A DNA stretch of 64,000 nucleotides from an uncultured archaeon (GTDB lineage: Archaea > Asgardarchaeota > Lokiarchaeia > Sigyniarchaeales > SOKP01). Below are positions 20,866 to 59,840 of the stretch, piece after piece. The stretch is taken from positions 1 to 64,000 of the forward strand of contig CAZWEM010000013.1 in the NCBI GenBank assembly GCA_964632315.1, given 5' to 3'. The position numbers were made by a program, and so were the translations under genes. The notes below the pieces were generated by a model, which did not search any database, was not told the DNA's origin, and was given only the letters and a program-made list of their open reading frames with translations. How positions within the stretch are numbered: position 1 is the stretch's first letter; each line of letters starts with the position of its first letter.

Positions 20866-21011
20866 TTATCCCATTTCCAAAAATGTATAGTAAAATTCGT
20901 TTTATCAATTATCGAGTTAAATTATTATATGATTGTAAATCATTGATAATATATTAATTGAGGAACATATTACAAATCTATAGTGAATATAAAATAAAAA
21001 GAGTGAATAAA

Positions 21012-22868
21012 ATGACAAGTCTAAACGATCCAGAATTTTTGGTGGATGAAAACAAAGTATGGTTTACTGAAGGATATTGGCCTGAAGGAGTACCTAAGCA
21101 GCTTAAAGACGTGGAAGGTATTGAGATCTCACAAATGTGGCAGAATTTCTTAAAATCAGCTGATGAAAATGATAGTTGGGATAAGGAACTCTGCATATTC
21201 GTGTATGGCCCCTATATGGAAAAAGTTAAGCTAAAAACCTTAGTTGATTATGCTAAAAAGTTTGGAACTTTTCTGCATGATCTAGGTATTGGAAAAGGAG
21301 ATGTTGTTGCTATTGATCTCCCCAATTCTATTAATTTTGTAGTAGCATATATGGGATGCATGTATATTGGTGCTGTTGCCCAAGGAATCAACCCTACTTA
21401 CAAGCCAATGGAACTATTACATTCACTTACGATGGCTAAAGCAAAAGTGCTCGTGTTGATGGATATGCTTTATATCGCAGGTCCCAGCACCATCCTACCA
21501 AAAACAAGCGTAAAATTTTTGATTCCATCGAATTTTACCGATTTCCTCACCGCAGATCAAGGTACTATCGACGCTCTTGGAATTCCAAACGCAAAAGATA
21601 AGATACCTGATGAAGCAGACGGATATAAAGTTCATTGGATGAAGGATATAATTGATAATACAGATCCAAAGGAAATCACTGTAGAGATTGATCCATGGAA
21701 GGATCCGGCAGTCTATTTGATGACAGGAGGCACAACTGGCTTACCTAAGGTTGCGATGCTCAGTCATGCAAATTTAGTCTGTAATCTGTATATGATAAAG
21801 CCATGGACCAATTTAGAACCGGGAATGTTGACAATAGGCAGTATTCCATTCTTCCATAGTTTTGGTATGACATGTGTCATGAATGGTGCATTATCCCTTG
21901 GAATGCGGATGTTATTATTCCCCAAACCACCTACAGATGAGGATCTTTCAGCAGCAATAAACAAACTTGATACTCCAGAGGGCATTATCTATGTAGGAGT
22001 AGAAATGCTTTTTAAGAGATTGACCGATTACGTGGAAGAAGTAGGTGTCGAAGAGTACAAGAAAAAATTTGACTTTTGGAAGAAGCTTCGCTACGCAACT
22101 TCAGGCGCAGGTCCTCTTCACGATTATGTCAGAATTCCCTTTGAGGAGATTTTCTGTCCTATTCGAGTTGGTTATGGACTCACAGAAACATCACCTGTAA
22201 CGAGTGTTGCTCCATTTTGGGGTCCTAATAAGAATGGTAAATTAGGATTACCCGTTCCAGGAGTAGATTGGGCTATTTTTGACGCCGAAAATTTTGAAGC
22301 TGGGCCTATTTGTGATGGTACGAAAGCACGAAATAATTTTGGAGTAGAACACACTGGAGAAATCTGCATCGCTGGACCCCACATAATGCTTGGTTACCTA
22401 GGAGAACAAAAGGAACAAGAGGATAATTTAAAATTCTGGGGTGGAAAGCGATGGCTTTTGTCTGGCGATATTGGATTTATGGATGAGCATGGTTTTTGTG
22501 AGATCAGGGATAGAAAGAAATCCTTGATTAAAGTATCTGGACATTCAGTCTTCCCTAAGGAAGTTGAGGAACTCATGGGAAACCATCCCGCTATTGATGA
22601 GGTCGCTGTAGCTGGATTACCTGATGAACAAACAGGAGAAAAAGTAAAAGCGTGGGTGACCTTGAAGAAAGGATACAAGGAAGGAAAAAATATTAGCTCA
22701 GAAGAAGTCAAAAAATGGTGCTTAGAAAACATGGCCAAATGGAAAACTCCTGTTCTAATAGAATTTGTGAGGAAGCTTCCAGTAAGTATGACGGGCAAAG
22801 TTCAGAGAAGAGAACTCCAAGAAAAAGATCTAGATAAATTGGAGAAAGGAAGAGAACTCAAGGGTTAA
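21012..22868 (+). CDS. Long-chain fatty acid--CoA ligase (AMP-binding enzyme)
   Basis: TGGTTGLPK, GYGLTETSP, SGDIG, DRKKSLIK, LPVSMTGKVQRR. The ORF track starts at 20958; ATG 21012 is more likely. Confidence 0.9.
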   Translation: MTSLNDPEFLVDENKVWFTEGYWPEGVPKQLKDVEGIEISQMWQNFLKSADENDSWDKELCIFVYGPYMEKVKLKTLVDYAKKFGTFLHDLGIGKGDVVAIDLPNSINFVVAYMGCMYIGAVAQGINPTYKPMELLHSLTMAKAKVLVLMDMLYIAGPSTILPKTSVKFLIPSNFTDFLTADQGTIDALGIPNAKDKIPDEADGYKVHWMKDIIDNTDPKEITVEIDPWKDPAVYLMTGGTTGLPKVAMLSHANLVCNLYMIKPWTNLEPGMLTIGSIPFFHSFGMTCVMNGALSLGMRMLLFPKPPTDEDLSAAINKLDTPEGIIYVGVEMLFKRLTDYVEEVGVEEYKKKFDFWKKLRYATSGAGPLHDYVRIPFEEIFCPIRVGYGLTETSPVTSVAPFWGPNKNGKLGLPVPGVDWAIFDAENFEAGPICDGTKARNNFGVEHTGEICIAGPHIMLGYLGEQKEQEDNLKFWGGKRWLLSGDIGFMDEHGFCEIRDRKKSLIKVSGHSVFPKEVEELMGNHPAIDEVAVAGLPDEQTGEKVKAWVTLKKGYKEGKNISSEEVKKWCLENMAKWKTPVLIEFVRKLPVSMTGKVQRRELQEKDLDKLEKGRELKG

Positions 22869-37992: not shown

Positions 37993-39417
37993 TTACAAAT
38001 TCTTTTTTACTATTGAATCAAACTCATTTTTTAGAGTTCCATCAACTGGATATTTCGGGCTATTAGTGCTTAATTTATTTGCTAAATCAATCGCCCTTTT
38101 GCGAGTCGATTTAGAGCCTGCAGATTTCCATGCTTCTCTTGACATCCTGTCAATTATAGGTCCAGTGATGAATAATTCTTTTCTAAAAAGATTTAGAGTA
38201 GTAGAATGTGATAATAATTCTTCGTTTTCGCTATAATCCTTGAGTATATCAAGGGCAAAAGGAGAGCCGTAATCTTCAACACCTCGTATCAATCTTTTTA
38301 CCATACCGACTATCTCATTATCGATTATTAATTTCTCAATACTCTGTGTAGATTCAAAATCTAGCATCCCTGGTCCAGAAATCATGTTTATTCCCGCTAA
38401 TCCTGCGAGCATTGCACCCATTCCACCTTCAAATCCTGCTTGTGCATCTGGGACTTTTGAATCACTCAAACTCATGTAGGCATGAGTCGGTAGATTTAGA
38501 AATTTCCCCATCTCGACATCGCCCAAATTGATCATCATGGTTTCTATGGCTCCCATAGGAGTTGTTCCCGCTTTCATATCTAAAATCGCGGGAGAACCTC
38601 CCCAAATAAGGGGGGCACCTTTATTTGCTAACTGTACTATCACAACTCCAGCTAAACATTCTGCACAATGTTGAGTTATTGAACCAATTAATGTAATTGG
38701 AGCACTCGCGCCGGATAATGGCATAGATACAAATTCAGAGGGGATATTATATCTTGCAGCGTCTATTAGGGATTGAGATGTTAAATCTGACCACTTTAAT
38801 GGAGGACTTGGACAAGCATCAAAAATAGCGAGAGGTTTTTTAGCAAGATCGTCTTCTGATAATCTACATGCTAAAAGCAAATCTTTCATTATTTTGAAAC
38901 TTTCTTTCCTAAATGTACCAGTTACCACGGGTTTATGGCAATGAAGTAGTGCTAAATAAAGGCGATGCCAATCTTGAGCACTTTTTGGGACATCTTGATA
39001 TACTAATGCCGTGCTTTGGGCATCAATATTTTTAAGTTGAGAGACAATCTTCGAAAAGCGAATGAAATCGCTGGATTGTGCCTCTCTGATCTTTCCAGAT
39101 TGTTCATCCAAAATTAATATTGCTGCAGAACCAGGATCAAAATGAATTTCATCACCCTTTAATTCTAAACTTTCACTCCCCTCTCTGTCATAAAGCTTAA
39201 TTTCAGAAGGAGTAGTATTTAAAGAGGCATCCACTAAATCCGAAGGAATAAAAAATCGTTCTCCCTCATTAGGAACTCCTTTCTTTTTTAATAATTCTTT
39301 AGCTTCAGCATTTTCGATGTAAACGCCAAGCTTTTCGAGGATTAGTTTTGCTTCGTTATGAATTAACTCTTTATGGTTTTCATCTAAAACTTTAATTTTA
39401 GGCCTAAGAATTGTCAT
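37993..39417 (-). CDS. MttB-superfamily methylamine/quaternary amine:corrinoid methyltransferase, non-pyrrolysine (MtgB-like)
   Basis: SPPLKW, GASAPITLIG, AECLAG, SDSKVPDAQAG, GMLD..IDNEI. No in-frame TAG; Leu (TTG, 38467-38469) at the Pyl-equivalent position. Confidence 0.9.
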   Translation of the reverse strand: MTILRPKIKVLDENHKELIHNEAKLILEKLGVYIENAEAKELLKKKGVPNEGERFFIPSDLVDASLNTTPSEIKLYDREGSESLELKGDEIHFDPGSAAILILDEQSGKIREAQSSDFIRFSKIVSQLKNIDAQSTALVYQDVPKSAQDWHRLYLALLHCHKPVVTGTFRKESFKIMKDLLLACRLSEDDLAKKPLAIFDACPSPPLKWSDLTSQSLIDAARYNIPSEFVSMPLSGASAPITLIGSITQHCAECLAGVVIVQLANKGAPLIWGGSPAILDMKAGTTPMGAIETMMINLGDVEMGKFLNLPTHAYMSLSDSKVPDAQAGFEGGMGAMLAGLAGINMISGPGMLDFESTQSIEKLIIDNEIVGMVKRLIRGVEDYGSPFALDILKDYSENEELLSHSTTLNLFRKELFITGPIIDRMSREAWKSAGSKSTRKRAIDLANKLSTNSPKYPVDGTLKNEFDSIVKKNL

Positions 39418-39436
39418 CTAATTTTCATTTCCTTAT

Positions 39437-40333
39437 TTAATTTCTATTTTCTAATCTGCTTCTTATTTCTTTTATCGTTTGAGGAGATGTACCACAACAT
39501 CCTCCCACAATCTTCGCTCCTTCATCAATAATTTTCATGATATCACTTGCGAATTCTTGAACTGATTGGTCATACACGGTCTTAGTTCCACCTTCAAGAC
39601 GTGGCTTACCTGCATTAGGTTTGATTGATATTGGCTTTTTGGTTAACTTTGAAATTTCAGTTGTTAATTCGATCATTTCGTGGGAACCTAATGTACAATT
39701 TGATCCAATTACATCCACTCCCTCATTGGATTGAATATCTACGCACTTTTCAAGGGAATCTCCCATGATTGTAAAAAAGCCTCTTTTAGTTCGTTTATAA
39801 GTCATTGAACTTATTATTGGTTTTGAAGAGACTTCCTTAACAGCTCGAATTGCTGCTTGCATTTCAATAATATCGGAGATTGTCTCTATGTGCCATAGAT
39901 CGACTCCATTTTCTAAAATCTCGACTTGTTTTTTATAGCTTACCTGCCATATCTCAAGACTAGCTTTACCAATAGGAGGTCTAAAAACTCCAGAAGGACC
40001 AATATCTCCCACTATGAGGGCTGTTGAAGGTTTACTCTTTTTAATATTTTCTAGTGCTTTTAAATTGATAAGTATAATTTTATCTTCACTTTTATGATTT
40101 TGTAAATTGAGATAATTGGCGCCAAATGTATTTGTCTGACACATATTCGATCCCGCTTCAAAATAAGCCTTATGGATCTCTGCTATTACTTCTGGTTCTT
40201 CAATGTTTAATATATCCGGAAGTTTTCCGGGTTTTAGCCCTCGTTTGATCACTTCTGACCCCATTCCCCCATCGAATAAAATCGTTTTTGAAGGATCGTT
40301 CAGCCAATCTTGAAATCTCATTACAGTTCCCAC
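39437..40333 (-). CDS. Homocysteine S-methyltransferase domain protein (MetH Hcy-binding module)
   Basis: FDGGMG, H..Y..AG, TNTFGAN, IETI, GSNC, PNAG.P, IVGGCCGT (Zn ligands intact). Confidence 0.9.
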   Translation of the reverse strand: MGTVMRFQDWLNDPSKTILFDGGMGSEVIKRGLKPGKLPDILNIEEPEVIAEIHKAYFEAGSNMCQTNTFGANYLNLQNHKSEDKIILINLKALENIKKSKPSTALIVGDIGPSGVFRPPIGKASLEIWQVSYKKQVEILENGVDLWHIETISDIIEMQAAIRAVKEVSSKPIISSMTYKRTKRGFFTIMGDSLEKCVDIQSNEGVDVIGSNCTLGSHEMIELTTEISKLTKKPISIKPNAGKPRLEGGTKTVYDQSVQEFASDIMKIIDEGAKIVGGCCGTSPQTIKEIRSRLENRN

Positions 40334-40981
40334 CTATTTATTCAAAAAACTTTTAAATAATGCAGCTGCACTTACAGCATTATCTGCATATCCATCAGCT
40401 CCACATTCTTCCACCCAACTTCTTGATACAGGGGCTCCTCCTAATATCACCTTAAATTTATCACGAATATTTTTCTCAAGTAAGATATCGACCACTCTTT
40501 TTTGTCCCGTCATGGTTGTGGTGAGTAATGCGGAAACACCTATGAATTGCGCTCCGCTTTTAAGAGCCTCATCAACAATTCTTTCTGCCGGTACATCTGC
40601 TCCAAGATCATGCACGTCAAATCCATTTGCTGATAACATTGTTGCTACAATTGTCTTTCCAATAGAATGGATATCGCCTTCAATAGTGGCGATTACAACA
40701 GTACCAAGTGAAATTTTTTGTGATTGTTCTTTTAGGTGGGGTATTAAAATTTTCATCGCATCTTGCATGATGTTACCCCCTAGCATTAATTCTGGGAGGA
40801 AAATTTCACCTTCATCCCATAAATCTCCAATTTTACGGATACCCTCTCCAAATCCTTTTTCCACAACTTCAAGTAAGTCCATTTGCTCATTAACCGCACG
40901 ATTAGCTAAATCTAATGCTTTATCTTTATCAAGGCTTACTATAGCATCTGAAATTTCATTAAGCATTTTCTCTGTCGACAT
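40334..40981 (-). CDS. Methyltransferase cognate corrinoid (B12-binding) protein
   Basis: Cap domain IFLPEL plus DIHSIGK, DLG.DV, SALLT, GGAP motifs. Confidence 0.92.
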   Translation of the reverse strand: MSTEKMLNEISDAIVSLDKDKALDLANRAVNEQMDLLEVVEKGFGEGIRKIGDLWDEGEIFLPELMLGGNIMQDAMKILIPHLKEQSQKISLGTVVIATIEGDIHSIGKTIVATMLSANGFDVHDLGADVPAERIVDEALKSGAQFIGVSALLTTTMTGQKRVVDILLEKNIRDKFKVILGGAPVSRSWVEECGADGYADNAVSAAALFKSFLNK

Positions 40982-43946: not shown

Positions 43947-44435
43947 GTGAGCCGTAGATATTACGCTAAGGGAAAAAAAACGTATGCTAAGGACCAGAAC
44001 TTTGATCAGGATCAAGTTGGCGAAGAAAAGGAGCGTTACTTGATTAATATATCCCTAATGAGCTTGAAGACGTTGAAGGACTATGATTTATTTGGTTGGC
44101 GGGGTGAATTTTATTTTAAATCCGATGGCGAAAAACTCTTTAAAGCCCGCTGGCCAAATAAAGGAACAATCAAATTGCAGAAAAATCAAGAATTTACTTC
44201 TAAAGCAGATATGTCTTTATGGAGTCAATTTAAAACCGTGCGTGCTGATGAAAGCATTGTTGTACCTGTAAAAGTTGAATTAAGGGAAAAAGATCACTTA
44301 AAGAAAGATTCCGTAATTGCTGAACAAACGTTTGAAATACGATTACCTCAGAAAACAGAATACGTAATCCTTCAGGATGATAAAGAAAGAACTAAAGCGA
44401 AACTTCGAATTCAAGCAACCAGAACTAGATATTAA
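43947..44435 (+). CDS. Hypothetical beta-rich protein (possible C2-like domain)
   Basis: Beta-strand pattern with DYDLFG..GEFYF and VELREKD..KDSVI loops reminiscent of C2 domains. Confidence 0.5.
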   Translation: MSRRYYAKGKKTYAKDQNFDQDQVGEEKERYLINISLMSLKTLKDYDLFGWRGEFYFKSDGEKLFKARWPNKGTIKLQKNQEFTSKADMSLWSQFKTVRADESIVVPVKVELREKDHLKKDSVIAEQTFEIRLPQKTEYVILQDDKERTKAKLRIQATRTRY

Positions 44436-44619: not shown

Positions 44620-44799
44620 CTATTCTTTTGAGTATTCGTTACTTAAATCTTCTGCTAATTTAAAGCCAAACTCAAAAAAATCTTTCATAGATTTATAAAA
44701 TAAGTCACCAACGACTTCTCCTACTCCTTCACTCAGTTCTTCTTTTTTATTCACCAAAAATTCATCAATTTTGGGCAAATCTTTTGTTAAATCTTCCAT
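44620..44799 (-). CDS. Small acidic amphipathic protein, 59 aa (not in ORF track)
   Basis: Manual translation MEDLTKDLPKIDEFLVNKKEELSEGVGEVVGDLFYKSMKDFFEFGFKLAEDLSNEYSKE; AAGGTGA SD upstream; lies 23 nt downstream of the pseudo-acyltransferase gene. Confidence 0.6.
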   Translation of the reverse strand: MEDLTKDLPKIDEFLVNKKEELSEGVGEVVGDLFYKSMKDFFEFGFKLAEDLSNEYSKE

Positions 44800-44822: not shown

Positions 44823-45518
44823 TTATTCTTCTTTTTTTGGCTTAAGAGAGTTGATAATCTTTATTATATCTTCAGCCAATTCATATCTTTGGTCTCGATA
44901 TTTTTCACGTGTAAGTCTTTTTTCTACCTTCAATGGGGTCCCAACTTTTACTCTCAAACCTGGACTATCAAATGTTCCAAATATTTTGCTTTTTTCAGTA
45001 TAGATAGCTAAGGGGATAATTGGGGCATCTCCAGCAACCGCAAACTTTAAAATCCCTGCCATGGCTTTTATTTGGATATCGGGTTCTAATTTAGATTCAG
45101 GTGTCATTGCTACTAAATCTCCTTCTTCATTAAGGTATTGAAACACCTTATCTATCGGTTCGGTATCGTCTTTATCTATTGTACTACGGAACATCCCTAA
45201 AGATTTCAATACAGGTCCATATATTTGATGTTTCATAAGTTTATGATGAACCATGAAGTGAATTCTCCTTCCTGAGACTTGGCTGATTATCGCCATATCT
45301 CGTAAGGCATTATCGCTAATGGTAGTTAAAATAGCTTTCCCTCTCAATGGGATGTTCTGTTTTCCTTCAATCTTAAGATCAGAAAATATGGTAAGTCCTA
45401 AACCGCTAATACCTTTCACTGCACCATACAAGACATCAAGCATGGTATCTTGATCGATTACTTTTTCCTTGCCTTCCGTTTCCGGAGTTTCTTGATTTCC
45501 AGACGCTGTGCCACTCAT
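44823..45518 (-). CDS. PlsC-like lysophospholipid acyltransferase-fold protein with degenerate catalytic motif
   Basis: IEGKQNIP.RG, RRIHFM, APIIPLAI, VKVGTPL give the PlsC fold; HX4D is replaced by TISDNALRD and FPEGT by TPES. Confidence 0.7.
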   Translation of the reverse strand: MSGTASGNQETPETEGKEKVIDQDTMLDVLYGAVKGISGLGLTIFSDLKIEGKQNIPLRGKAILTTISDNALRDMAIISQVSGRRIHFMVHHKLMKHQIYGPVLKSLGMFRSTIDKDDTEPIDKVFQYLNEEGDLVAMTPESKLEPDIQIKAMAGILKFAVAGDAPIIPLAIYTEKSKIFGTFDSPGLRVKVGTPLKVEKRLTREKYRDQRYELAEDIIKIINSLKPKKEE

Positions 45519-45662: not shown

Positions 45663-45993
45663 CTATCTATTAACCTCAATTACGTCAACGATCCACTCTG
45701 GATCATTGATTCTCAAAATTAAGTCTTGTTATTTTAAAAAATAGATGGATTTCACAGAAATTTCCCCCTTAAAGTACTTCTTTTCGCCTTCCTTATTAAA
45801 TCCTACGGATACTTTGGTTTAGTTGTATATTTTTTCTTAGCATTAAGAAAAAAACCGTCCAAACTATTAAGAGATAAAAGTATCTAAAGATAAGTAAAAA
45901 AGCAAATGAGATCGTTAAAAACCCTTCTAGTTGAAACTTCATGCATGTTTCACTGGTTTTACTTAATTAACTATTTTCTAAAGAAAAAGGCAT
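45663..45993 (-). pseudogene. Possible decayed gene coupled to the deaminase (immunity-like remnant?)
   Basis: ATG overlaps the deaminase stop (TAATG) but is followed by a stop after 8 codons. Protein-like fragments (VGFNKEGEKKYFKGEISVKSIYFLK*QDLILRINDPEWIVDVIEVNR) lie in another frame. Confidence 0.25.
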
Positions 45994-46538
45994 TACTCTC
46001 GTACTTTTTCTCTAATTGATAATTTTCTAATATTCGGGTATTCTTCTTCAAATTTATGTAAGATCTCTTTACATGATTTGCATATTGATCCTTCTGATAC
46101 TATTAGTACTTCTCCATCTAAGAGTTTTTCCAACTCCCACAAATCTGCCATGGTAACAATCAATTTTCTTACTGCATGATACCATTCTTTATCTCCTGCT
46201 ACATTCTTTACCTTAAACACTTTAGAAACAGGCGATATTGGATCGATGATTATGTCTTTTTTTCCATTTTTTGTTTCTATTATTGCAGTCCCCGGTATGA
46301 ATTGCTTACCTTCGATTGCCATGATATACCCTTTATGGACTACATTTTCAGGAAATGTGTAATTGAATTTAACATAAGCTATATTCCCACTATCTTTATG
46401 CCACCCTTGTACTTTTCTCACATTTTCAATGATGATTTGGTCAGAGAAATTCGAACTTTTTTCAATGTTTAGTTTCTGTTTTATAGCGTCAATGAGCTCT
46501 TGATCGGATAAATTTTCTGATGATACTACCCAAGTCAT
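45993..46538 (-). CDS. Polymorphic-toxin-type nucleic acid deaminase domain protein
   Basis: GNIAYV...HAVRKL...GEVLIVSEGSICKSC..IL.KF...YPNI matches the toxin-deaminase layout (HAE/DSE...PCxxC...F...YPNI). The frame is open about 24 codons further upstream. Confidence 0.65.
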   Translation of the reverse strand: MTWVVSSENLSDQELIDAIKQKLNIEKSSNFSDQIIIENVRKVQGWHKDSGNIAYVKFNYTFPENVVHKGYIMAIEGKQFIPGTAIIETKNGKKDIIIDPISPVSKVFKVKNVAGDKEWYHAVRKLIVTMADLWELEKLLDGEVLIVSEGSICKSCKEILHKFEEEYPNIRKLSIREKVRE

Positions 46539-46742: not shown

Positions 46743-48416
46743 TTATACGTCTTTCACATCATACATGAGTAAACTCTTTAATTGAGCCATCATGTTATCC
46801 GTTAAACGTTTTAATTCGTCATATTCGGGCATTGTTTTTCCCCAATATTGCTTATGTTCCATGAAGGGAGGTCCGGCTTTTAAGATACTTCCCTTATAAA
46901 AATTTAACATTTTAGCATGTTTAGGATAAGTATCTTCTGTACCCGTAATACCAATTAAACAAATCGGGACTTGTTTTTCAATTGCTAATCGTACTGCTCC
47001 TGTATGGCCTTCTAGTATCTGACCCCCTCCAAGATTAGTGGTTCCTTCGGGATATATGCATACCAACTGTCCTTTATCTAAGAGATCTCTTGCAAAGTTA
47101 AAAGAATCGACATCATGCTGACCTCGCTTCAAAGGAAACGCATGATGATTTCTAATCCAGGCATTTACGATTGGAATCTTGAATAAGGATTGCTTGGACA
47201 TTTGATAGATAACCCGGCGTGGTTCATTGTAAATGATGCTCGTAGCTAAAAGAATGACATCCCATTCGGAATTATGGGTTGTGCATAATACGGCTGAACC
47301 TGTTTTTGGAAGGTATTTATCAAAATCAATCGCCTTATAGGGGATCATTACTTGATTCCAGTTATGCACGATTTCACCGGATATAGTGTAAACTACTTTT
47401 TGGAATTGTTCCCTCAAACCAAATTCTTCTAAAGATCGTAAGAATCCATACCAGATGTCGTCGATGGACCATAATGCCCCCATCGTAAAATCTTTAAACC
47501 ACTTTTTAATATTAAATGACTCTTTCTTTTCAGGTTGTTGCGCTGATTCTGCTAATTCTTCTTCGGTCTTTCCATAGGTCCCCTCACGGAGCTCAAATAC
47601 AATAGTGCGAAGCTCTTCGGTAAGTTTTCGTATGTCTTCATAACTTACTTTATTGGTATCATATTTATCATAATAGAGAGGATCACCAACCCTAGCAAAA
47701 ACGTGAGTCGGCTTCATCATGAGGCCTCCTTTTGGTAATGCTTTATCTGAACCTATGATTGCCATTGGTACTATTGGTACTCCCGTCTCAATTGCTAATC
47801 TCACTGCACCAGTTTTGAACTGGCCCAATTCTCCTTCTGTTGAACGAGTACCCTCTGGAAAAATTCCAACCCACTCACCTTGATCTAATATCTCTTTTGC
47901 TTTCTTCCATCCTAACGCGGGATTATCTCGATCTAGTTTGAAAGCACCAAGATTCGTGAATAAACTTCTCACTATTGGGGTTTTAAAATTGTCTAATTTA
48001 CTCATAAAACGGATTTTCCTATGGCAAGCCATACCACAGAAAAATGGGTCAATGTGGCTCTGATGATTGCTGACAACGATACCTGGGCCATAATCAGGAA
48101 ACATATTTCCTTTAGGATAATAATATTTGAAATTCCACAGTACACGCCCAATAAATTTTATATAAAACGTGGCTAGCCACCATTGAAGCCTCTGCTCCGT
48201 GAATTCAACATCTAATCGTCGAATAACTTCACGATATTGGTCATTCAAGAAATCTATAGGATTATTCTTTAGTAATTTATAGAGAAAATTTTCATGACCT
48301 TTTTCATATTGCAGGTCTTCTTTCATTTTTTCCTCGAGGATCTTCTCGTGGTTGACTTCCCCGTAGGATTCATACGCCTCATAATCGCGTTTTTCGAGTT
48401 CTACCATTTTTAGCAC
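46743..48416 (-). CDS. Tandem two-domain PlsC-like (lyso)phospholipid acyltransferase; probable start ATG 48407
   Basis: Domain 1: NHQSHID, RFMSK, FPEGTRS, PIVP. Domain 2: THNSEWD, YQMSK, YPEGTT, PICL. Confidence 0.9.
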   Translation of the reverse strand: MLKMVELEKRDYEAYESYGEVNHEKILEEKMKEDLQYEKGHENFLYKLLKNNPIDFLNDQYREVIRRLDVEFTEQRLQWWLATFYIKFIGRVLWNFKYYYPKGNMFPDYGPGIVVSNHQSHIDPFFCGMACHRKIRFMSKLDNFKTPIVRSLFTNLGAFKLDRDNPALGWKKAKEILDQGEWVGIFPEGTRSTEGELGQFKTGAVRLAIETGVPIVPMAIIGSDKALPKGGLMMKPTHVFARVGDPLYYDKYDTNKVSYEDIRKLTEELRTIVFELREGTYGKTEEELAESAQQPEKKESFNIKKWFKDFTMGALWSIDDIWYGFLRSLEEFGLREQFQKVVYTISGEIVHNWNQVMIPYKAIDFDKYLPKTGSAVLCTTHNSEWDVILLATSIIYNEPRRVIYQMSKQSLFKIPIVNAWIRNHHAFPLKRGQHDVDSFNFARDLLDKGQLVCIYPEGTTNLGGGQILEGHTGAVRLAIEKQVPICLIGITGTEDTYPKHAKMLNFYKGSILKAGPPFMEHKQYWGKTMPEYDELKRLTDNMMAQLKSLLMYDVKDV

Positions 48417-48658: not shown

Positions 48659-49441
48659 TTAGGAATTTACTTTCATGCTCTCTTGAGAATTAGGATCTTC
48701 GACTATTCTTTTTTCAATAATATCGATAAGCTGATTGAGATTATCAATTATCATGTTAGGCTCGAAATTTGAAAGTATTTCCCTACTACTTACACCAGTC
48801 ATAACCGCAATAGTCCAAATTCCTGCTTCATTCCCGGCTTCTATATCGGAGGGCATATCTCCAATCATTATGAATTCATTTGCTTTTTTTGATCTATAGT
48901 TTTCAAAAATTGGATTTAATGATTCAGGATCTGGCTTTAAGGCGGGAAGCAAATCAGTTCCATATATACCTTTAAAAAAACCTTTTATCTTATGTTTTTC
49001 AAGATGTTCCATGATGTTTTTAGTTTGATTGTGAGACACGATAAAAAGATCAAACGACTTTTTCAGTTTTTTTAATATATTAACCGTATCAGGAAAAAGA
49101 GGTGCTTCTTTGGCATAGGTTAGATAACGCGAGAAAATTTTCGTCGCTATTTCCAACTTTTTCATAAAGGAAAGTGATTGAAGAGACGTGATATGTTTGA
49201 ACATCTCATGAGATTGAAGTATGATTTTTGGTAATGGATACCCTTGAATTGTTTCCATGAGTGCGCCAATTTCTTGAATAGTTGAATCAATTTCCGCATT
49301 AATTTTATTATCACTATAAATTTCATCAATGGAATTTCTTAATGGTTCGCTGATATCTAAAAGTGTCCCATCAAAATCGAAAATGATCCCTTTAATATCT
49401 CCATTTTGCAGTCGTTTAATTAACTGTTTATCTGAAACCAT
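48659..49441 (-). CDS. HAD-superfamily phosphatase (Gph-like)
   Basis: IFDFDGTL, VSHN, KPDP, IGDMPSDIEAG. Confidence 0.88.
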   Translation of the reverse strand: MVSDKQLIKRLQNGDIKGIIFDFDGTLLDISEPLRNSIDEIYSDNKINAEIDSTIQEIGALMETIQGYPLPKIILQSHEMFKHITSLQSLSFMKKLEIATKIFSRYLTYAKEAPLFPDTVNILKKLKKSFDLFIVSHNQTKNIMEHLEKHKIKGFFKGIYGTDLLPALKPDPESLNPIFENYRSKKANEFIMIGDMPSDIEAGNEAGIWTIAVMTGVSSREILSNFEPNMIIDNLNQLIDIIEKRIVEDPNSQESMKVNS

Positions 49442-55915: not shown

Positions 55916-56992
55916 ATGGTATTTAGTAACCCGATAAAAAACAAGAAAATAAAGGTTGGTATCCCCAGAGCACTCCATTTCTATCGTTACTACCCTTTTT
56001 GGAAAAAATTACTCGAAGAATTAGATGTTGATATCATTGTAAGTTCTCCAACAAATAAAACAATAGTAAATCTAGGGGTCACCCATGGTTTTGGTGAACT
56101 TTGTATCCCTGTAAAAATATATTATGGACAAGTCATAAATTTAATCGAGAAATATTCTGATTTAGATTTTCTTTTTGTCCCAAGATATGTATCTGAAGAT
56201 CCTGATTCCTATTTTTGTCCTAAATTTATTTCACTCCCTGATGTAATTAAAATTCTACCTAAAATGCCAAAGATACTAAATTTTGAGGTAAATGCAAAAG
56301 AATTTCCCATTGCAATTTCTGCCATAGAACTTGGAAAACAACTTGGTAAAAATCCCATTGTATCTCTTAAGGCGTATAGGAAAGCACAATCATACTTCTA
56401 TGAATATCACAGATTTCTCCGTGAAGGAGGTTCAGTAAATTATGCTTTACGTTTAGTTCAGCGTAATTTACCTTTTAAACTCCCGAAAAAGCAACTTAAG
56501 GGGGAAATTCGATTTCTCTTATTAGGTCACGCCTATAACCTATTTGATACTTTTATTAATTTAGATTTTATTAAAAAATTACAAGATCAAAATGTAGAAG
56601 TACTCACTATTGAAAACCTCCCAGAATATATCTTCAAAAAACCAGTTATAGTAAATCCAAACGGAGGGAAATTAAGGAATTATTGGCGTCATGAAGAAGA
56701 AATAATGCAAGCCATTCGATTTTTTCTTACTAAGGGTCGAAATGAAATAGATGGTGTCATTTTTTTAATTAGCTTTGCATGTGGTCCAGATAGTCTTATC
56801 TCTGAATTAATAATGCGCGATATGAAAGTAGTTGGATTACCATTTCTGGAGATAATAATGGATGAACATTCGGGAGAAGCAGGAATGATGACTCGAATAG
56901 AGAGTTTTGTTGAAATGGTCCGTCGAAAAAGAAAGAAACTTGGTTTAGAACCGAGATGGAAATCAAAAACTAACTTTTCAGAAGATGTTTAA
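55916..56992 (+). CDS. DUF2229 / acyl-CoA dehydratase activase-related Fe-S protein (PlsA reductase-domain-like)
   Basis: VGIPRAL..Y.YYPFW, LCIPVK, YFCPKF, GHAYN, SFACGPD, DEHSGEAG..TRIESF. Confidence 0.85.
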   Translation: MVFSNPIKNKKIKVGIPRALHFYRYYPFWKKLLEELDVDIIVSSPTNKTIVNLGVTHGFGELCIPVKIYYGQVINLIEKYSDLDFLFVPRYVSEDPDSYFCPKFISLPDVIKILPKMPKILNFEVNAKEFPIAISAIELGKQLGKNPIVSLKAYRKAQSYFYEYHRFLREGGSVNYALRLVQRNLPFKLPKKQLKGEIRFLLLGHAYNLFDTFINLDFIKKLQDQNVEVLTIENLPEYIFKKPVIVNPNGGKLRNYWRHEEEIMQAIRFFLTKGRNEIDGVIFLISFACGPDSLISELIMRDMKVVGLPFLEIIMDEHSGEAGMMTRIESFVEMVRRKRKKLGLEPRWKSKTNFSEDV

Positions 56993-57335
56993 GAAAGATT
57001 TGATTTCAATTATTTAAAGGAGATAACTATTAATACAAGGATTATATTTCAATTTTGTTCTTAATAGACTTAACTTACATCAAATTAGTTATTCCTTTTT
57101 CAAGACTTTTTGATGTTTTCCATTAAATAATCAAAAAGTAATTTCTCTAAATTTTACCAATAATTATAGTCTAAAATCTACATAAAAATTAATTATTCTT
57201 ATGCATTTCGTTCATTTTACAAAAATAATGAGAAAATGTATAGTTTTCTTAAAAAAAAACCCATAATAATACTACTAAAAATATCAATTGTTTGAAGTTT
57301 TAAAGTTAAAGGATAATTTATTTATTTAAGGCTAT

Positions 57336-57376
57336 GATATTAAATCAAAGATCCAATTAATTAAGATATTAAATCA
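57336..57376. promoter_or_regulatory. Tandem 12-bp direct repeat GATATTAAATCA, putative transcription-factor sites
   Basis: Exact copies at 57336-57347 and 57365-57376, 20 nt before ATG 57397; the first copy forms TGAT-N5-ATCA. Confidence 0.4.
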
Positions 57377-57396
57377 CTTTAAAAAATAAAAAAACT

Positions 57397-58584
57397 ATGC
57401 TTATATCCTTTCCGAATTTAGGTAATTCATGGCCTGCCTTTAAAACGTTGTTTACGGCGTTGGACCTAGATGTAATCCTTCCCGATCCCACAAATCGAGA
57501 GGCAATCAAAATTGGGGTTAAATATAGCCCTGAGTTTGTATGTTTTCCCTTTAAAGCAACACTTGGCGATTTTGTTAGTGCTATTAAGAAAGGAGCAGAT
57601 ACTTTGGTAATGGCAATCGATTGTGGACCTTGTCGCTTTGGGTTTTATGCAAGTGTTCAAGAACGGATTTTAAAGGACATGGGATATGAGAACATACATG
57701 TAATTCCCTTAGATCAAGCTGATCTTTTGGAATTTCATTGGGTCAAGACGCTTCAAGACTTAAATGGTCGAAAAGACTTGTTTATGTACTCGAAATTTGT
57801 TAAAGCAGTAATGTATTTCTTGAAAAAAACAAAATTAATACAAGATATTCAAACAGCAGAAGGATTATTCCGTGCTTATGAACGTAATTTAGGAGCTACG
57901 ACTCAAGTCGTCAACAATTTATTACAGAAGTTAGATGAAGCTAACTCTTTACCAGAACTACGGAATTTTAAAAATGTGATCAAAAAAAATTTTAATACCA
58001 TTGATGTTGATAAGACACGAACACCCTTAAGGGTTGGACTTTCAGGTGAGATTCATATTAGCCTTGAGCCATATGTAAATTTAGATATTAGGCGAAAATT
58101 AGGGGAGATGGGTGTTGAAATTCATCAGAATTTAAGTCTTTATGATTGGGTTATTCATAAATTTCATCTTAATTTTCACCGAAAATGGCTTGAACATTTA
58201 GCAAAACCTTATGTACCAATGGATATTGGCGGTGAATGTGTTTGGGTTATTGGAGAATACATAGATAAAGCAAATGCGGGGTTTGACGGGTTCGTTCATT
58301 CCTATCCTTTTACGTGCATGCCTGAAGTGACTGCTCGGACAATTATAACCAATAAGCTTAAGAAAATTTACGATCTTCCAATAATTTATTTCTCTTTTGA
58401 CGAGCAAAGTGGTCAAGAGGGTTTTCGAACACGATTAGAGGCCTTTTATGATTTAATGCAAGCCAGGCGTGACCAAGAAATTAAGAATACTCCAGAATTT
58501 ATGGCAAATAGCAAACAGAAGATTTATCCATATTTTGGAGATAATTTTTATAATGAGATAGCTCAATTAATCCAAACAGAGTGA
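57397..58584 (+). CDS. 2-hydroxyacyl-CoA dehydratase-related Fe-S protein (PlsR-like)
   Basis: ISFP..G, VCFPFK, GPCRFGFY, GEIHI, PFTCMPE, DEQSG..G..TRLEAF. Confidence 0.82.
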   Translation: MLISFPNLGNSWPAFKTLFTALDLDVILPDPTNREAIKIGVKYSPEFVCFPFKATLGDFVSAIKKGADTLVMAIDCGPCRFGFYASVQERILKDMGYENIHVIPLDQADLLEFHWVKTLQDLNGRKDLFMYSKFVKAVMYFLKKTKLIQDIQTAEGLFRAYERNLGATTQVVNNLLQKLDEANSLPELRNFKNVIKKNFNTIDVDKTRTPLRVGLSGEIHISLEPYVNLDIRRKLGEMGVEIHQNLSLYDWVIHKFHLNFHRKWLEHLAKPYVPMDIGGECVWVIGEYIDKANAGFDGFVHSYPFTCMPEVTARTIITNKLKKIYDLPIIYFSFDEQSGQEGFRTRLEAFYDLMQARRDQEIKNTPEFMANSKQKIYPYFGDNFYNEIAQLIQTE

Positions 58585-58592
58585 AAATGTAA

Positions 58593-59618
58593 ATGGTTGA
58601 AGTTTCAGATAAAGTAAAAAGTGATGAGAGGAAAAAAGAAGCTTTTTTAGGCATTGATATTGGTTCAGTTTCCTGTAAATTTGTACTCATGAATATAAAT
58701 GGGGAAGTTTTGACAAGTGTGTTTTTACGAAATCGAGGTTCTCCGATAGATTCAGCAAAAGCGGGGATGTCAGAATTGAGAACAAAAATACAAGAAAATG
58801 AAGAATTCCAAGATTATGTCATAAAGTGTTGCGGAACCACGGGTTCGGCACGTTATTTAACTAAAGCGGTCGTTGGTGGTGATTTAGCGAAAACAGAGAT
58901 AATTGCTCATGCTGTTGCTACTCAATCAATGTATCCCGAGGTGCGCACAATTTTAGAGATCGGTGGGCAAGATTCGAAAATTATCATTTTGCGGGATGGA
59001 ATAATAGTTGATTTCGCAATGAATTCGGTTTGTGCCGCAGGTACAGGTTCATTTCTTGATCACCAAGCAGGTAGGTTATGTATACCAATAGAAGAATTTG
59101 GAGATTATGCTATTCGATCAACAAATCCGGTTAGCATTGCCGGAAGATGCACTGTATTTGCTGAATCAGACATGATCCATAAACAAAACGCGGGTTATTC
59201 CAAGGAAGATATTATTGCTGGCTTATGCGATTCCTTAGTACGTAATTATATGAATAATCTTGGAAAAGGAAAAGAACTGGAAGAACCTGTTGTATTTCAA
59301 GGAGGCGTTTCATATAATAAAGGAATTGTTGAGGCTTTTGAGCGCCATTTAGGCTGTAGGGTAATTGTACCGAAATATAATGTTTTTATGGGGGCATTAG
59401 GGATGGCAATATTGGTAAGGGATTATTATCTAGAAAATGGGAATGAAACTATATTTCGAGGTTTAGAAGTATCTGATATTGAATTTAAAACTTCTGCTTT
59501 TCACTGTGGGGATTGTCCTAATAATTGTGAAATTGTACAAGTCCAAATTCCCGAACAAGGTAATAAAATAATTGCTAGATGGGGATCAAGATGTGGAAAG
59601 TGGGATCAGTTAACATGA
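58593..59618 (+). CDS. ATP-dependent acyl-CoA dehydratase activase (HgdC/BadF/BcrAD family)
   Basis: LGIDIGSVS, TTGS.R, EI.AH, EIGGQDSK, MNSVCAAGTGSFL, RCTVFAESD, QGGV; C-terminal CGDCPNNC...RCGKW. Confidence 0.92.
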   Translation: MVEVSDKVKSDERKKEAFLGIDIGSVSCKFVLMNINGEVLTSVFLRNRGSPIDSAKAGMSELRTKIQENEEFQDYVIKCCGTTGSARYLTKAVVGGDLAKTEIIAHAVATQSMYPEVRTILEIGGQDSKIIILRDGIIVDFAMNSVCAAGTGSFLDHQAGRLCIPIEEFGDYAIRSTNPVSIAGRCTVFAESDMIHKQNAGYSKEDIIAGLCDSLVRNYMNNLGKGKELEEPVVFQGGVSYNKGIVEAFERHLGCRVIVPKYNVFMGALGMAILVRDYYLENGNETIFRGLEVSDIEFKTSAFHCGDCPNNCEIVQVQIPEQGNKIIARWGSRCGKWDQLT

Positions 59619-59645
59619 TTGTAAATACTTAGAGGTATATGTGAT

Positions 59646-59840
59646 ATGGCAGAATTTTTGAAGCAATTGATGGAATTGGGAGAAGAATTTTTCGAAACCA
59701 TCAAACACAAGACTAAATTATCTACCTTTTTTGATATGTACACCGAAAAAGTTATTCCTACATTTGTTTCTGAGAAAGATTTAAAAGAGTATTACGAGAA
59801 GCGGATGGAGGATGTAAATAAACTTATTGATAAATTATAA
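59646..59840 (+). CDS. Small amphipathic helical protein
   Basis: 64-aa ORF 27 nt after the activase gene, GAGGT SD-like motif upstream. Confidence 0.55.
   Translation: MAEFLKQLMELGEEFFETIKHKTKLSTFFDMYTEKVIPTFVSEKDLKEYYEKRMEDVNKLIDKL

Follow-up and report, generated by a model that had tools for sequence, protein, structure and literature searches.

A three-gene DUF2229 reductase system conserved beside PlsC-family acyltransferases in Lokiarchaeia, a candidate glycerolipid ester reductase

All DUF2229 proteins characterized to date act on glycerolipid esters (PMC13159169, PMC12838417). In PlsA/PlsR (Clostridium perfringens CPE1194/1195; a single gene in Enterococcus, Lactococcus and Listeria), two tandem activase domains are fused to the first reductase module, Red1. 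The Ger protein of Thermotoga maritima (Tmari_0479) and Desulfatibacillum alkenivorans is one polypeptide starting with two PF01869 domains and PF09989 (BBD), and this BBD start is present in all alkyl-ether makers (PMC13159169). A correlation between plasmalogens and the possession of one activation domain was reported, along with the impossibility of distinguishing PlsA from Ger by sequence (PMC13274423), and the function of the single-activase forms was termed unclear in a 2022 preprint. Bacillota and other anaerobes, such as Monoglobus, Moorella and Fervidicola, carry a three-gene operon annotated as 'acyl-CoA dehydratase activase-related / 2-hydroxyacyl-CoA dehydratase / activase'. Here, a locus of this three-gene type is described in a window of 64,000 nucleotides, the whole stretch analysed (positions 1 to 64,000 of contig CAZWEM010000013.1, assembly GCA_964632315.1), from an uncultured archaeon of the Lokiarchaeia (Sigyniarchaeales; SOKP01). 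Its genes, named A to D, are listed below.

55916-56992, plus strand: A, DUF2229/HGD-D reductase subunit of 358 aa, equivalent of PlsA Red1 (Pfam, alignment, tree)
57397-58584, plus strand: B, second reductase/dehydratase subunit of 395 aa with the HadBC/BCR/DCCP fold, equivalent of PlsA Red2 / PlsR
58593-59618, plus strand: C, single-domain ATP-dependent activase of 341 aa with a PlsA Act2-like tail (Pfam, tree, Cys motif)
59646-59840, plus strand: D, 64-aa protein without a family match, 3′ of C, kept in relatives

The initial annotation had read this block as three co-oriented genes followed by a microprotein, and the four intact open reading frames on one strand, separated by gaps of 404 nt (A–B), 8 nt (B–C) and 27 nt (C–D), agree with it in position, motifs and domains. 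In Pfam searches, A matched DUF2229 (E 2e-42) and, weakly, HGD-D, and B matched part of DUF2229 (2e-11) and, again weakly, HGD-D; the motifs GPCRFGFY and PFTCMPE both lie in B. Three cysteines were invariant in the alignment of each reductase subunit (63, 101 and 289 in A; 49, 79 and 307 in B), and those of A are probable [4Fe-4S] ligands. The predicted structure of B (predicted local distance difference test score of 85) has the fold of DCCP, benzoyl-CoA reductase (BCR) and HadBC, with template modelling (TM) scores of 0.44-0.55 at 11-15% identity, whereas no PDB entry was retrieved by sequence similarity to B. C carries one BcrAD_BadFG domain (9e-47; TIGR00241, 3e-57), the two activase cysteines Cys147 and Cys186, and a tail with the pattern C305-C308-C312...C334 (CxxCxxxC...C); it is presumed to act as a homodimer. 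D matched no Pfam family and nothing in the ESM Atlas; it stands directly 3′ of C in 63 of 80 relatives and is restricted to the Lokiarchaeia clade, being found in none of the three-gene loci examined from bacteria or from other Asgard archaea. A profile of D gave no match to acyltransferases, and D is therefore no longer considered a detached PlsC anchor.

The relation of these proteins to PlsA was assessed using homologs from Listeria, Fusobacterium and clostridia as stand-ins for the validated enzyme. On the PlsA-like protein from Listeria, the profile of A aligned with residues ~670-990 (Red1; E 4e-30) and that of B with residues ~1040-1260 (Red2; 3e-11), and C was 34% identical to PlsA-type Act2. 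The Cys motifs of A, B and C match those of Red1, Red2 and Act2 one to one in the Listeria and Fusobacterium proteins. Quick trees of reductases and activases, with Shimodaira–Hasegawa-like approximate likelihood ratio (SH-aLRT) support, long outgroup branches and no bootstrap, placed A with Red1 (95) and B with Red2 (97), leaving HgdAB/YjiM outside (99), while the stand-alone C proteins formed one clade (95) separate from the fused Act2 domains, with HgdC/BcrA/YjiL outside the DUF2229-linked activases (100). The Lokiarchaeia copies formed their own clade (98-100) among the bacterial three-gene systems, and the classical HgdABC that this genome also encodes, on contig C28, grouped with the outgroup. 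The homology to PlsA and Ger and the distinctness from HgdAB that had been claimed for the locus are thus borne out by module mapping, Cys motifs and both trees. The further claim of a split PlsA system stands as regards module homology but not as regards descent from a broken-up PlsA: A and B do group with Red1 and Red2, but ABC as a whole falls sister to the fused PlsA clade and not inside it. By these alignments and trees, ABC is placed in a widespread three-gene subfamily, sister to the fused PlsA-type proteins and apart from HgdABC.

Compared with the described systems, ABC has modules and Cys motifs in common with PlsA/PlsR, but it has one stand-alone activase instead of two tandem domains fused to Red1, lies in a sister clade to the PlsA stand-in homologs, and differs in its gene order (Red1-Red2-activase), its extra protein D and its acyltransferase cluster. 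With Ger it shares PF01869, PF09989 and PF06050, but it lacks the BBD start. On account of these differences in architecture and, for PlsA, in clade, ABC was assigned to neither. The likeness to the bacterial three-gene operon is the closest: both have the order A-B-C, proteins of ~330-400 aa and a place in one clade, and the Monoglobus operon (WP_102365312/311/310) encodes proteins 32% (A), 31% (B) and 54% (C) identical to those of the present locus. In bacteria, however, the operon has neither D nor acyltransferase genes nearby, and its position is often just after sigF-spoVA. More remotely, HgdABC/HadBCI, BCR and DCCP share with ABC the fold and an ATP-dependent activase family; these systems differ from it in lacking DUF2229, in activases without the Cys tail, in sequence (11-15% identity) and in their position as outgroup in both trees.

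The lipid connection comes from the genes that surround the system in relatives, which are non-independent samples. In 80 relatives the usual order, on one strand, was HAD, double PlsC, A-B-C-D and His-less PlsC; of 21 informative loci, 20 had the end of the double PlsC gene less than 200 nt from A, and in 56 of 61 loci the gene for His-less PlsC lay downstream of B-C. Where the cluster was split, A tended to stay with double PlsC and B-C-D with His-less PlsC. Similarly, one or two PlsC genes stood 5′ of A in 10 of the 11 Promethearchaeaceae genomes examined, among them those of the cultured P. syntrophicum MK-D1 and Ca. L. ossiferum and of Ca. Harpocratesius repetitus. The locus lies at about 336.3-341.0 kb of the MK-D1 chromosome and at about 3421.4-3427.1 kb in L. 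ossiferum. In a third family, a triple acyltransferase, a LarA-like gene and HAD preceded A-B-C. Overall, PlsC lies beside A in three Lokiarchaeia families, with other flanking genes that vary between families. Moreover, in a separate Asgard three-gene clade, DegV/FakB and PlsY stood just 5′ of A-B-C in two related genomes, most copies of that clade being without lipid neighbours. The counterparts of the cluster genes in the window are as follows.

48659-49441, minus strand: HAD-family phosphatase, at the head of the ancestral cluster by gene order in relatives
46743-48416, minus strand: double PlsC-family acyltransferase with HX4D and PEGT intact in both domains, directly 5′ of A in relatives
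45993-46538, minus strand: toxin-deaminase-like ORF of 181 aa (PF14424, E 1.5e-6, just under the cut-off), at the site of ABCD in relatives
44823-45518, minus strand: His-less PlsC-family protein, directly 3′ of D in relatives
20958-22868: acyl-CoA ligase-like (AMP-binding) gene, 33 kb from ABCD

In this genome HAD, double PlsC and His-less PlsC, all on the minus strand, still follow one another as in the ancestral cluster, and ABCD has moved out to the opposite strand, 7.5 kb from the start of double PlsC (48416). The PlsC cluster had been described as lying about 6.5 kb away; the association itself is upheld by its conservation in relatives, but the gene found at 6.5 kb is HAD (49441). The toxin-deaminase-like ORF, a single copy in the genome whose motifs look altered, marks the site of the rearrangement and is no part of the pathway, and no repeats were found at the ends of the rearrangement. 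In the His-less protein, the catalytic His is missing across 65 aligned orthologs, with the Asp kept and PEGT replaced by PES/PEA. The double and His-less genes are the only PlsC-family members on Loki-type contigs, a fourth match lying on a contig of 68% GC, and DUF2229 in the bin is limited to the genes of the ABCD block, with no fused form in the genome. The acyl-CoA ligase-like gene, which had been cited in support of a lipid role, was rejected as evidence, being 33 kb off and one of ~17 related tblastn matches in the genome.

Across 251 Asgard genomes, DUF2229 was found in 93. The co-occurrence with PlsC proposed as a check held in one direction: no family that has DUF2229 lacks both PlsC and PlsY, and the families without PlsC and nearly or wholly without PlsY, including those of 59 and 19 genomes, have no DUF2229. 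The converse fails, as PlsC or PlsY also occurs in families without DUF2229, and the pattern is a matter of consistency only, related genomes being non-independent. The genome under study encodes the synthase of geranylgeranylglyceryl phosphate (GGGP), a UbiA-family candidate for that of digeranylgeranylglyceryl phosphate (DGGGP), CarS and three PlsY-domain proteins. Its four iron-type alcohol dehydrogenase matches look like alcohol dehydrogenases, none being identified as an AraM-type glycerol-1-phosphate dehydrogenase, though such an enzyme may be present.

Homology identifies C as the Fe-S protein that donates electrons at the expense of ATP, and A and B as the two Fe-S modules, each with three Cys and the HadBC/BCR fold. 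ABC plausibly works like PlsA/Ger. The reading we favour, with a confidence only a little above even, is that ABC works on the glycerolipids of the membrane as a radical ester reductase of the PlsA type, converting esters to ethers. It draws on the module match, the Cys motifs, the trees, the PlsC synteny, the DegV/PlsY context and the co-occurrence, and also on the fact that these are the only DUF2229 and Loki-type PlsC genes in the genome. Bacterial lipid records point the same way, by correlation, for the conversion of an sn-1 acyl ester to a vinyl ether: the draft genomes of Fervidicola ferrireducens and Moorella thermoacetica contain split DUF2229 genes only (318-407 aa, two sets each), and both species yield plasmalogen-derived dimethylacetals (DMAs; PMC13274423 Table S1), the Moorella strain differing from that of the genome. 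In the scheme envisaged, modelled on the PlsA proposal of two one-electron reductions, protonation and dehydration, the PlsC-family acyltransferases of the ancestral cluster would esterify fatty acyl chains onto glycerol phosphate or a lyso-lipid, and the C homodimer would spend ATP to drive single low-potential electrons into A-B. There the ester carbonyl would become a ketyl radical and then a hemiacetal, from which water would be removed. Within this scheme the product would somewhat more probably be a vinyl ether (plasmalogen), the alternative being further reduction to an alkyl ether, with a slightly smaller share of the probability. Our guess for D and the His-less PlsC is an accessory role in the membrane or in lipid handling, and for HAD that of a lipid-phosphate phosphatase. 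Three further analyses of these proteins and their locus gave no guidance: scans for promoters and terminators at the locus scored at or below chance; the complex prediction for A, B and D with His-less PlsC scored 0.00, gave no answer and was used neither way; and an amphipathic-helix scan found a strong window in 33% of the B proteins from Lokiarchaeia, in 23% of the Red2 modules and in none of five HgdAB proteins, which does not separate the families.

Several observations weigh against ester-to-ether reduction. ABCD no longer adjoins PlsC in this genome, A and B are only 21-26% identical to the PlsA-type modules, and the three-gene subfamily is one without an experimentally characterized member. 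No PlsC, PlsY or DegV gene was found within up to 6 kb of any of 80 bacterial three-gene loci, of which 17 are neighbours of spoVA and 14 of a sigF-like gene, and neither GpsA, EgsA, DegV nor an above-cut-off GlpK was found in this genome. The lipids published for MK-D1 are phytane and biphytanes only, after ether cleavage; the method may have missed ester lipids (2026 paper). Caldanaerobacter subterraneus, with two split DUF2229 sets, has a lipid list of alcohols and wax esters without DMA (PMC13274423; different strain). Finally, MK-D1 also has a fused, Ger-like protein of 1419 aa, whose gene comes after genes of the thiolase-domain and acyl-CoA dehydrogenase types and is oriented towards others resembling CoA-transferases (locus L424:3013-12989), a context hinting that some published 'Ger homologs' may act on soluble acyl-CoA.

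The synteny would be equally well accounted for by a lipid-linked system that forms no ethers, in which ABC either produces a fatty aldehyde or a fatty alcohol by reduction of acyl-CoA or a lipid ester, or carries out the dehydration or reduction of a hydroxy- or enoyl-acyl chain that PlsC would then transfer, possibly onto an isoprenoid lyso-ether. Such an activity is in keeping with the solved members of the fold, which act on CoA thioesters, with the 1-OH alcohols and wax esters of Caldanaerobacter, where the systems are of the split form only, and with the archaeal GGGP and DGGGP synthases and CarS of this genome. It is nonetheless rather unlikely in our judgement, given that the sole characterized DUF2229 proteins use glycerolipid esters (see above) and that Fervidicola and Moorella, which need a plasmalogen synthase, show the split form only. 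Ester reduction to ethers must also be set against a soluble radical enzyme, dehydratase or reductase, that serves the fermentation of amino acids or fatty acids and acts like Hgd, Had or BCR on a CoA ester, for which the acyltransferase context would be inherited order without shared function. The best fold matches of B, to DCCP, BCR and HadBC, would fit such an enzyme, as would the absence of lipid neighbours from the bacterial orthologs and from most copies of the other Asgard clade, the splitting of the cluster here and in many relatives, and the acyl-CoA catabolic context of the fused MK-D1 paralog. The persistence of the PlsC-A linkage across three families amid turnover of other neighbours, the position of the second clade next to DegV and PlsY, and the presence of a separate classical HgdABC branching far away make it improbable. 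That the block is displaced, mis-assembled or decaying in this genome, and uncoupled from the acyltransferases, is suggested by its inverted position 7.5 kb from PlsC and by the composition of the bin (4.45 Mb, 99.5% complete, 8.6% contamination); however, the frames are intact, all invariant cysteines are kept, B is 80-97% identical to its closest relatives, and the remaining cluster genes keep their ancestral order on the same contig, which leaves this explanation very little room. The nearest matches, at 67-88% identity for B, carry almost without exception the label Promethearchaeota, and the organism is assigned to that group (Lokiarchaeia) on their account. Bin contigs of 54-70% GC (C36, C74, C80, C82, C87, C90 and others) are probable contamination, and public records with Loki-type sequence labelled Nanopelagicaceae, Nitrosopumilaceae, Thor-, Odin- or Hodarchaeota, among them loci L011 and L165, are probably mislabelled or mis-binned.

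The initial annotation knew of no description of such a route in archaea, but this claim of novelty is not upheld: Ger homologs were reported in Lokiarchaeota, including P. syntrophicum, and Heimdallarchaeota by Sahonero-Canavesi et al. in 2022, and bacterial-type ether lipids were proposed for Asgard archaea (PMC13159169). The fused 1419-aa protein of MK-D1 fits the search filter of that study better and is the likelier of the two to be the published homolog. PlsC and PlsY were reported in Lokiarchaeota in 2019 (PMC6737245), and plasmalogens have been stated to be absent from archaea (PMC13012113). Literature searches of incomplete coverage turned up no account of a PlsC linkage for the three-gene form. 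PlsC/PlsY and Ger homologs in Asgard archaea had been reported separately, and their conserved physical linkage defines a cassette of four to seven genes. Extending the ester-reductase reading, we put forward tentatively, at somewhat less than an even chance, that in Lokiarchaeia, including P. syntrophicum and L. ossiferum, the ancestral cluster is dedicated to making fatty-acyl glycerolipids, which a third, split class of ester reductase then turns into plasmalogens or n-alkyl ethers, and that the three-gene form explains plasmalogens in bacteria without a fused PlsA. If so, Lokiarchaeia would be the first archaea with plasmalogens, and the matter would touch on whether Asgard membranes are fatty-acid-based or mixed, a question still debated in connection with how eukaryotic membranes arose. 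The presence of the linkage in both cultured Lokiarchaeia makes the lipid question directly testable, the products to look for being DMA-yielding plasmalogens and n-alkyl glycerol ethers, and a confirmed activity would give a function to the widespread bacterial three-gene operon.

Besides these results, other DUF2229 arrangements were seen. In many Lokiarchaeia, the cluster includes a paralogous set absent from this genome, with an 812-aa FAD_binding_4-DUF2229 fusion, a 343-aa activase and a 444-aa B paralog (loci L011:3387-8181, L010:4965-9825 and L144). FAD_binding_4 is the fold class of alkyl-dihydroxyacetone phosphate synthase and GlcD. Some relatives carry near the cluster a PlsA/PlsR-like pair of genes (977 and 469 aa; L010:271-4631, L146:11960-16328), which branches with the Asgard fused forms and apart from the PlsA clade of bacteria. 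The three-gene operon of Bacillota is often found directly after spoIIA-sigF-spoVA-gerA-like genes (L339, L340, L347, L373, L412 and others), which suggests a forespore role for one paralog of the bacterial operon.

Among possible lipid genes, the three PlsY-domain proteins of this genome (~400-410 aa) are encoded in tandem on contig C3 (L237:6918-10766) and have an extra C-terminal half without a Pfam match at E 0.001, and one Promethearchaeaceae genome has a PEMT/ICMT-family methyltransferase gene between the PlsC genes and A (L227:4114-4890). In the window, His-less PlsC is followed by two small genes without a Pfam match (43947-44435, plus strand; 44620-44799, minus strand), kept in 42 and 25 loci, respectively, and further on by a cluster of MttB-family methyltransferase, S-methyltransferase and corrinoid protein genes (37993-40981, minus strand), which is conserved on the downstream side of the lipid genes in 12 relatives.

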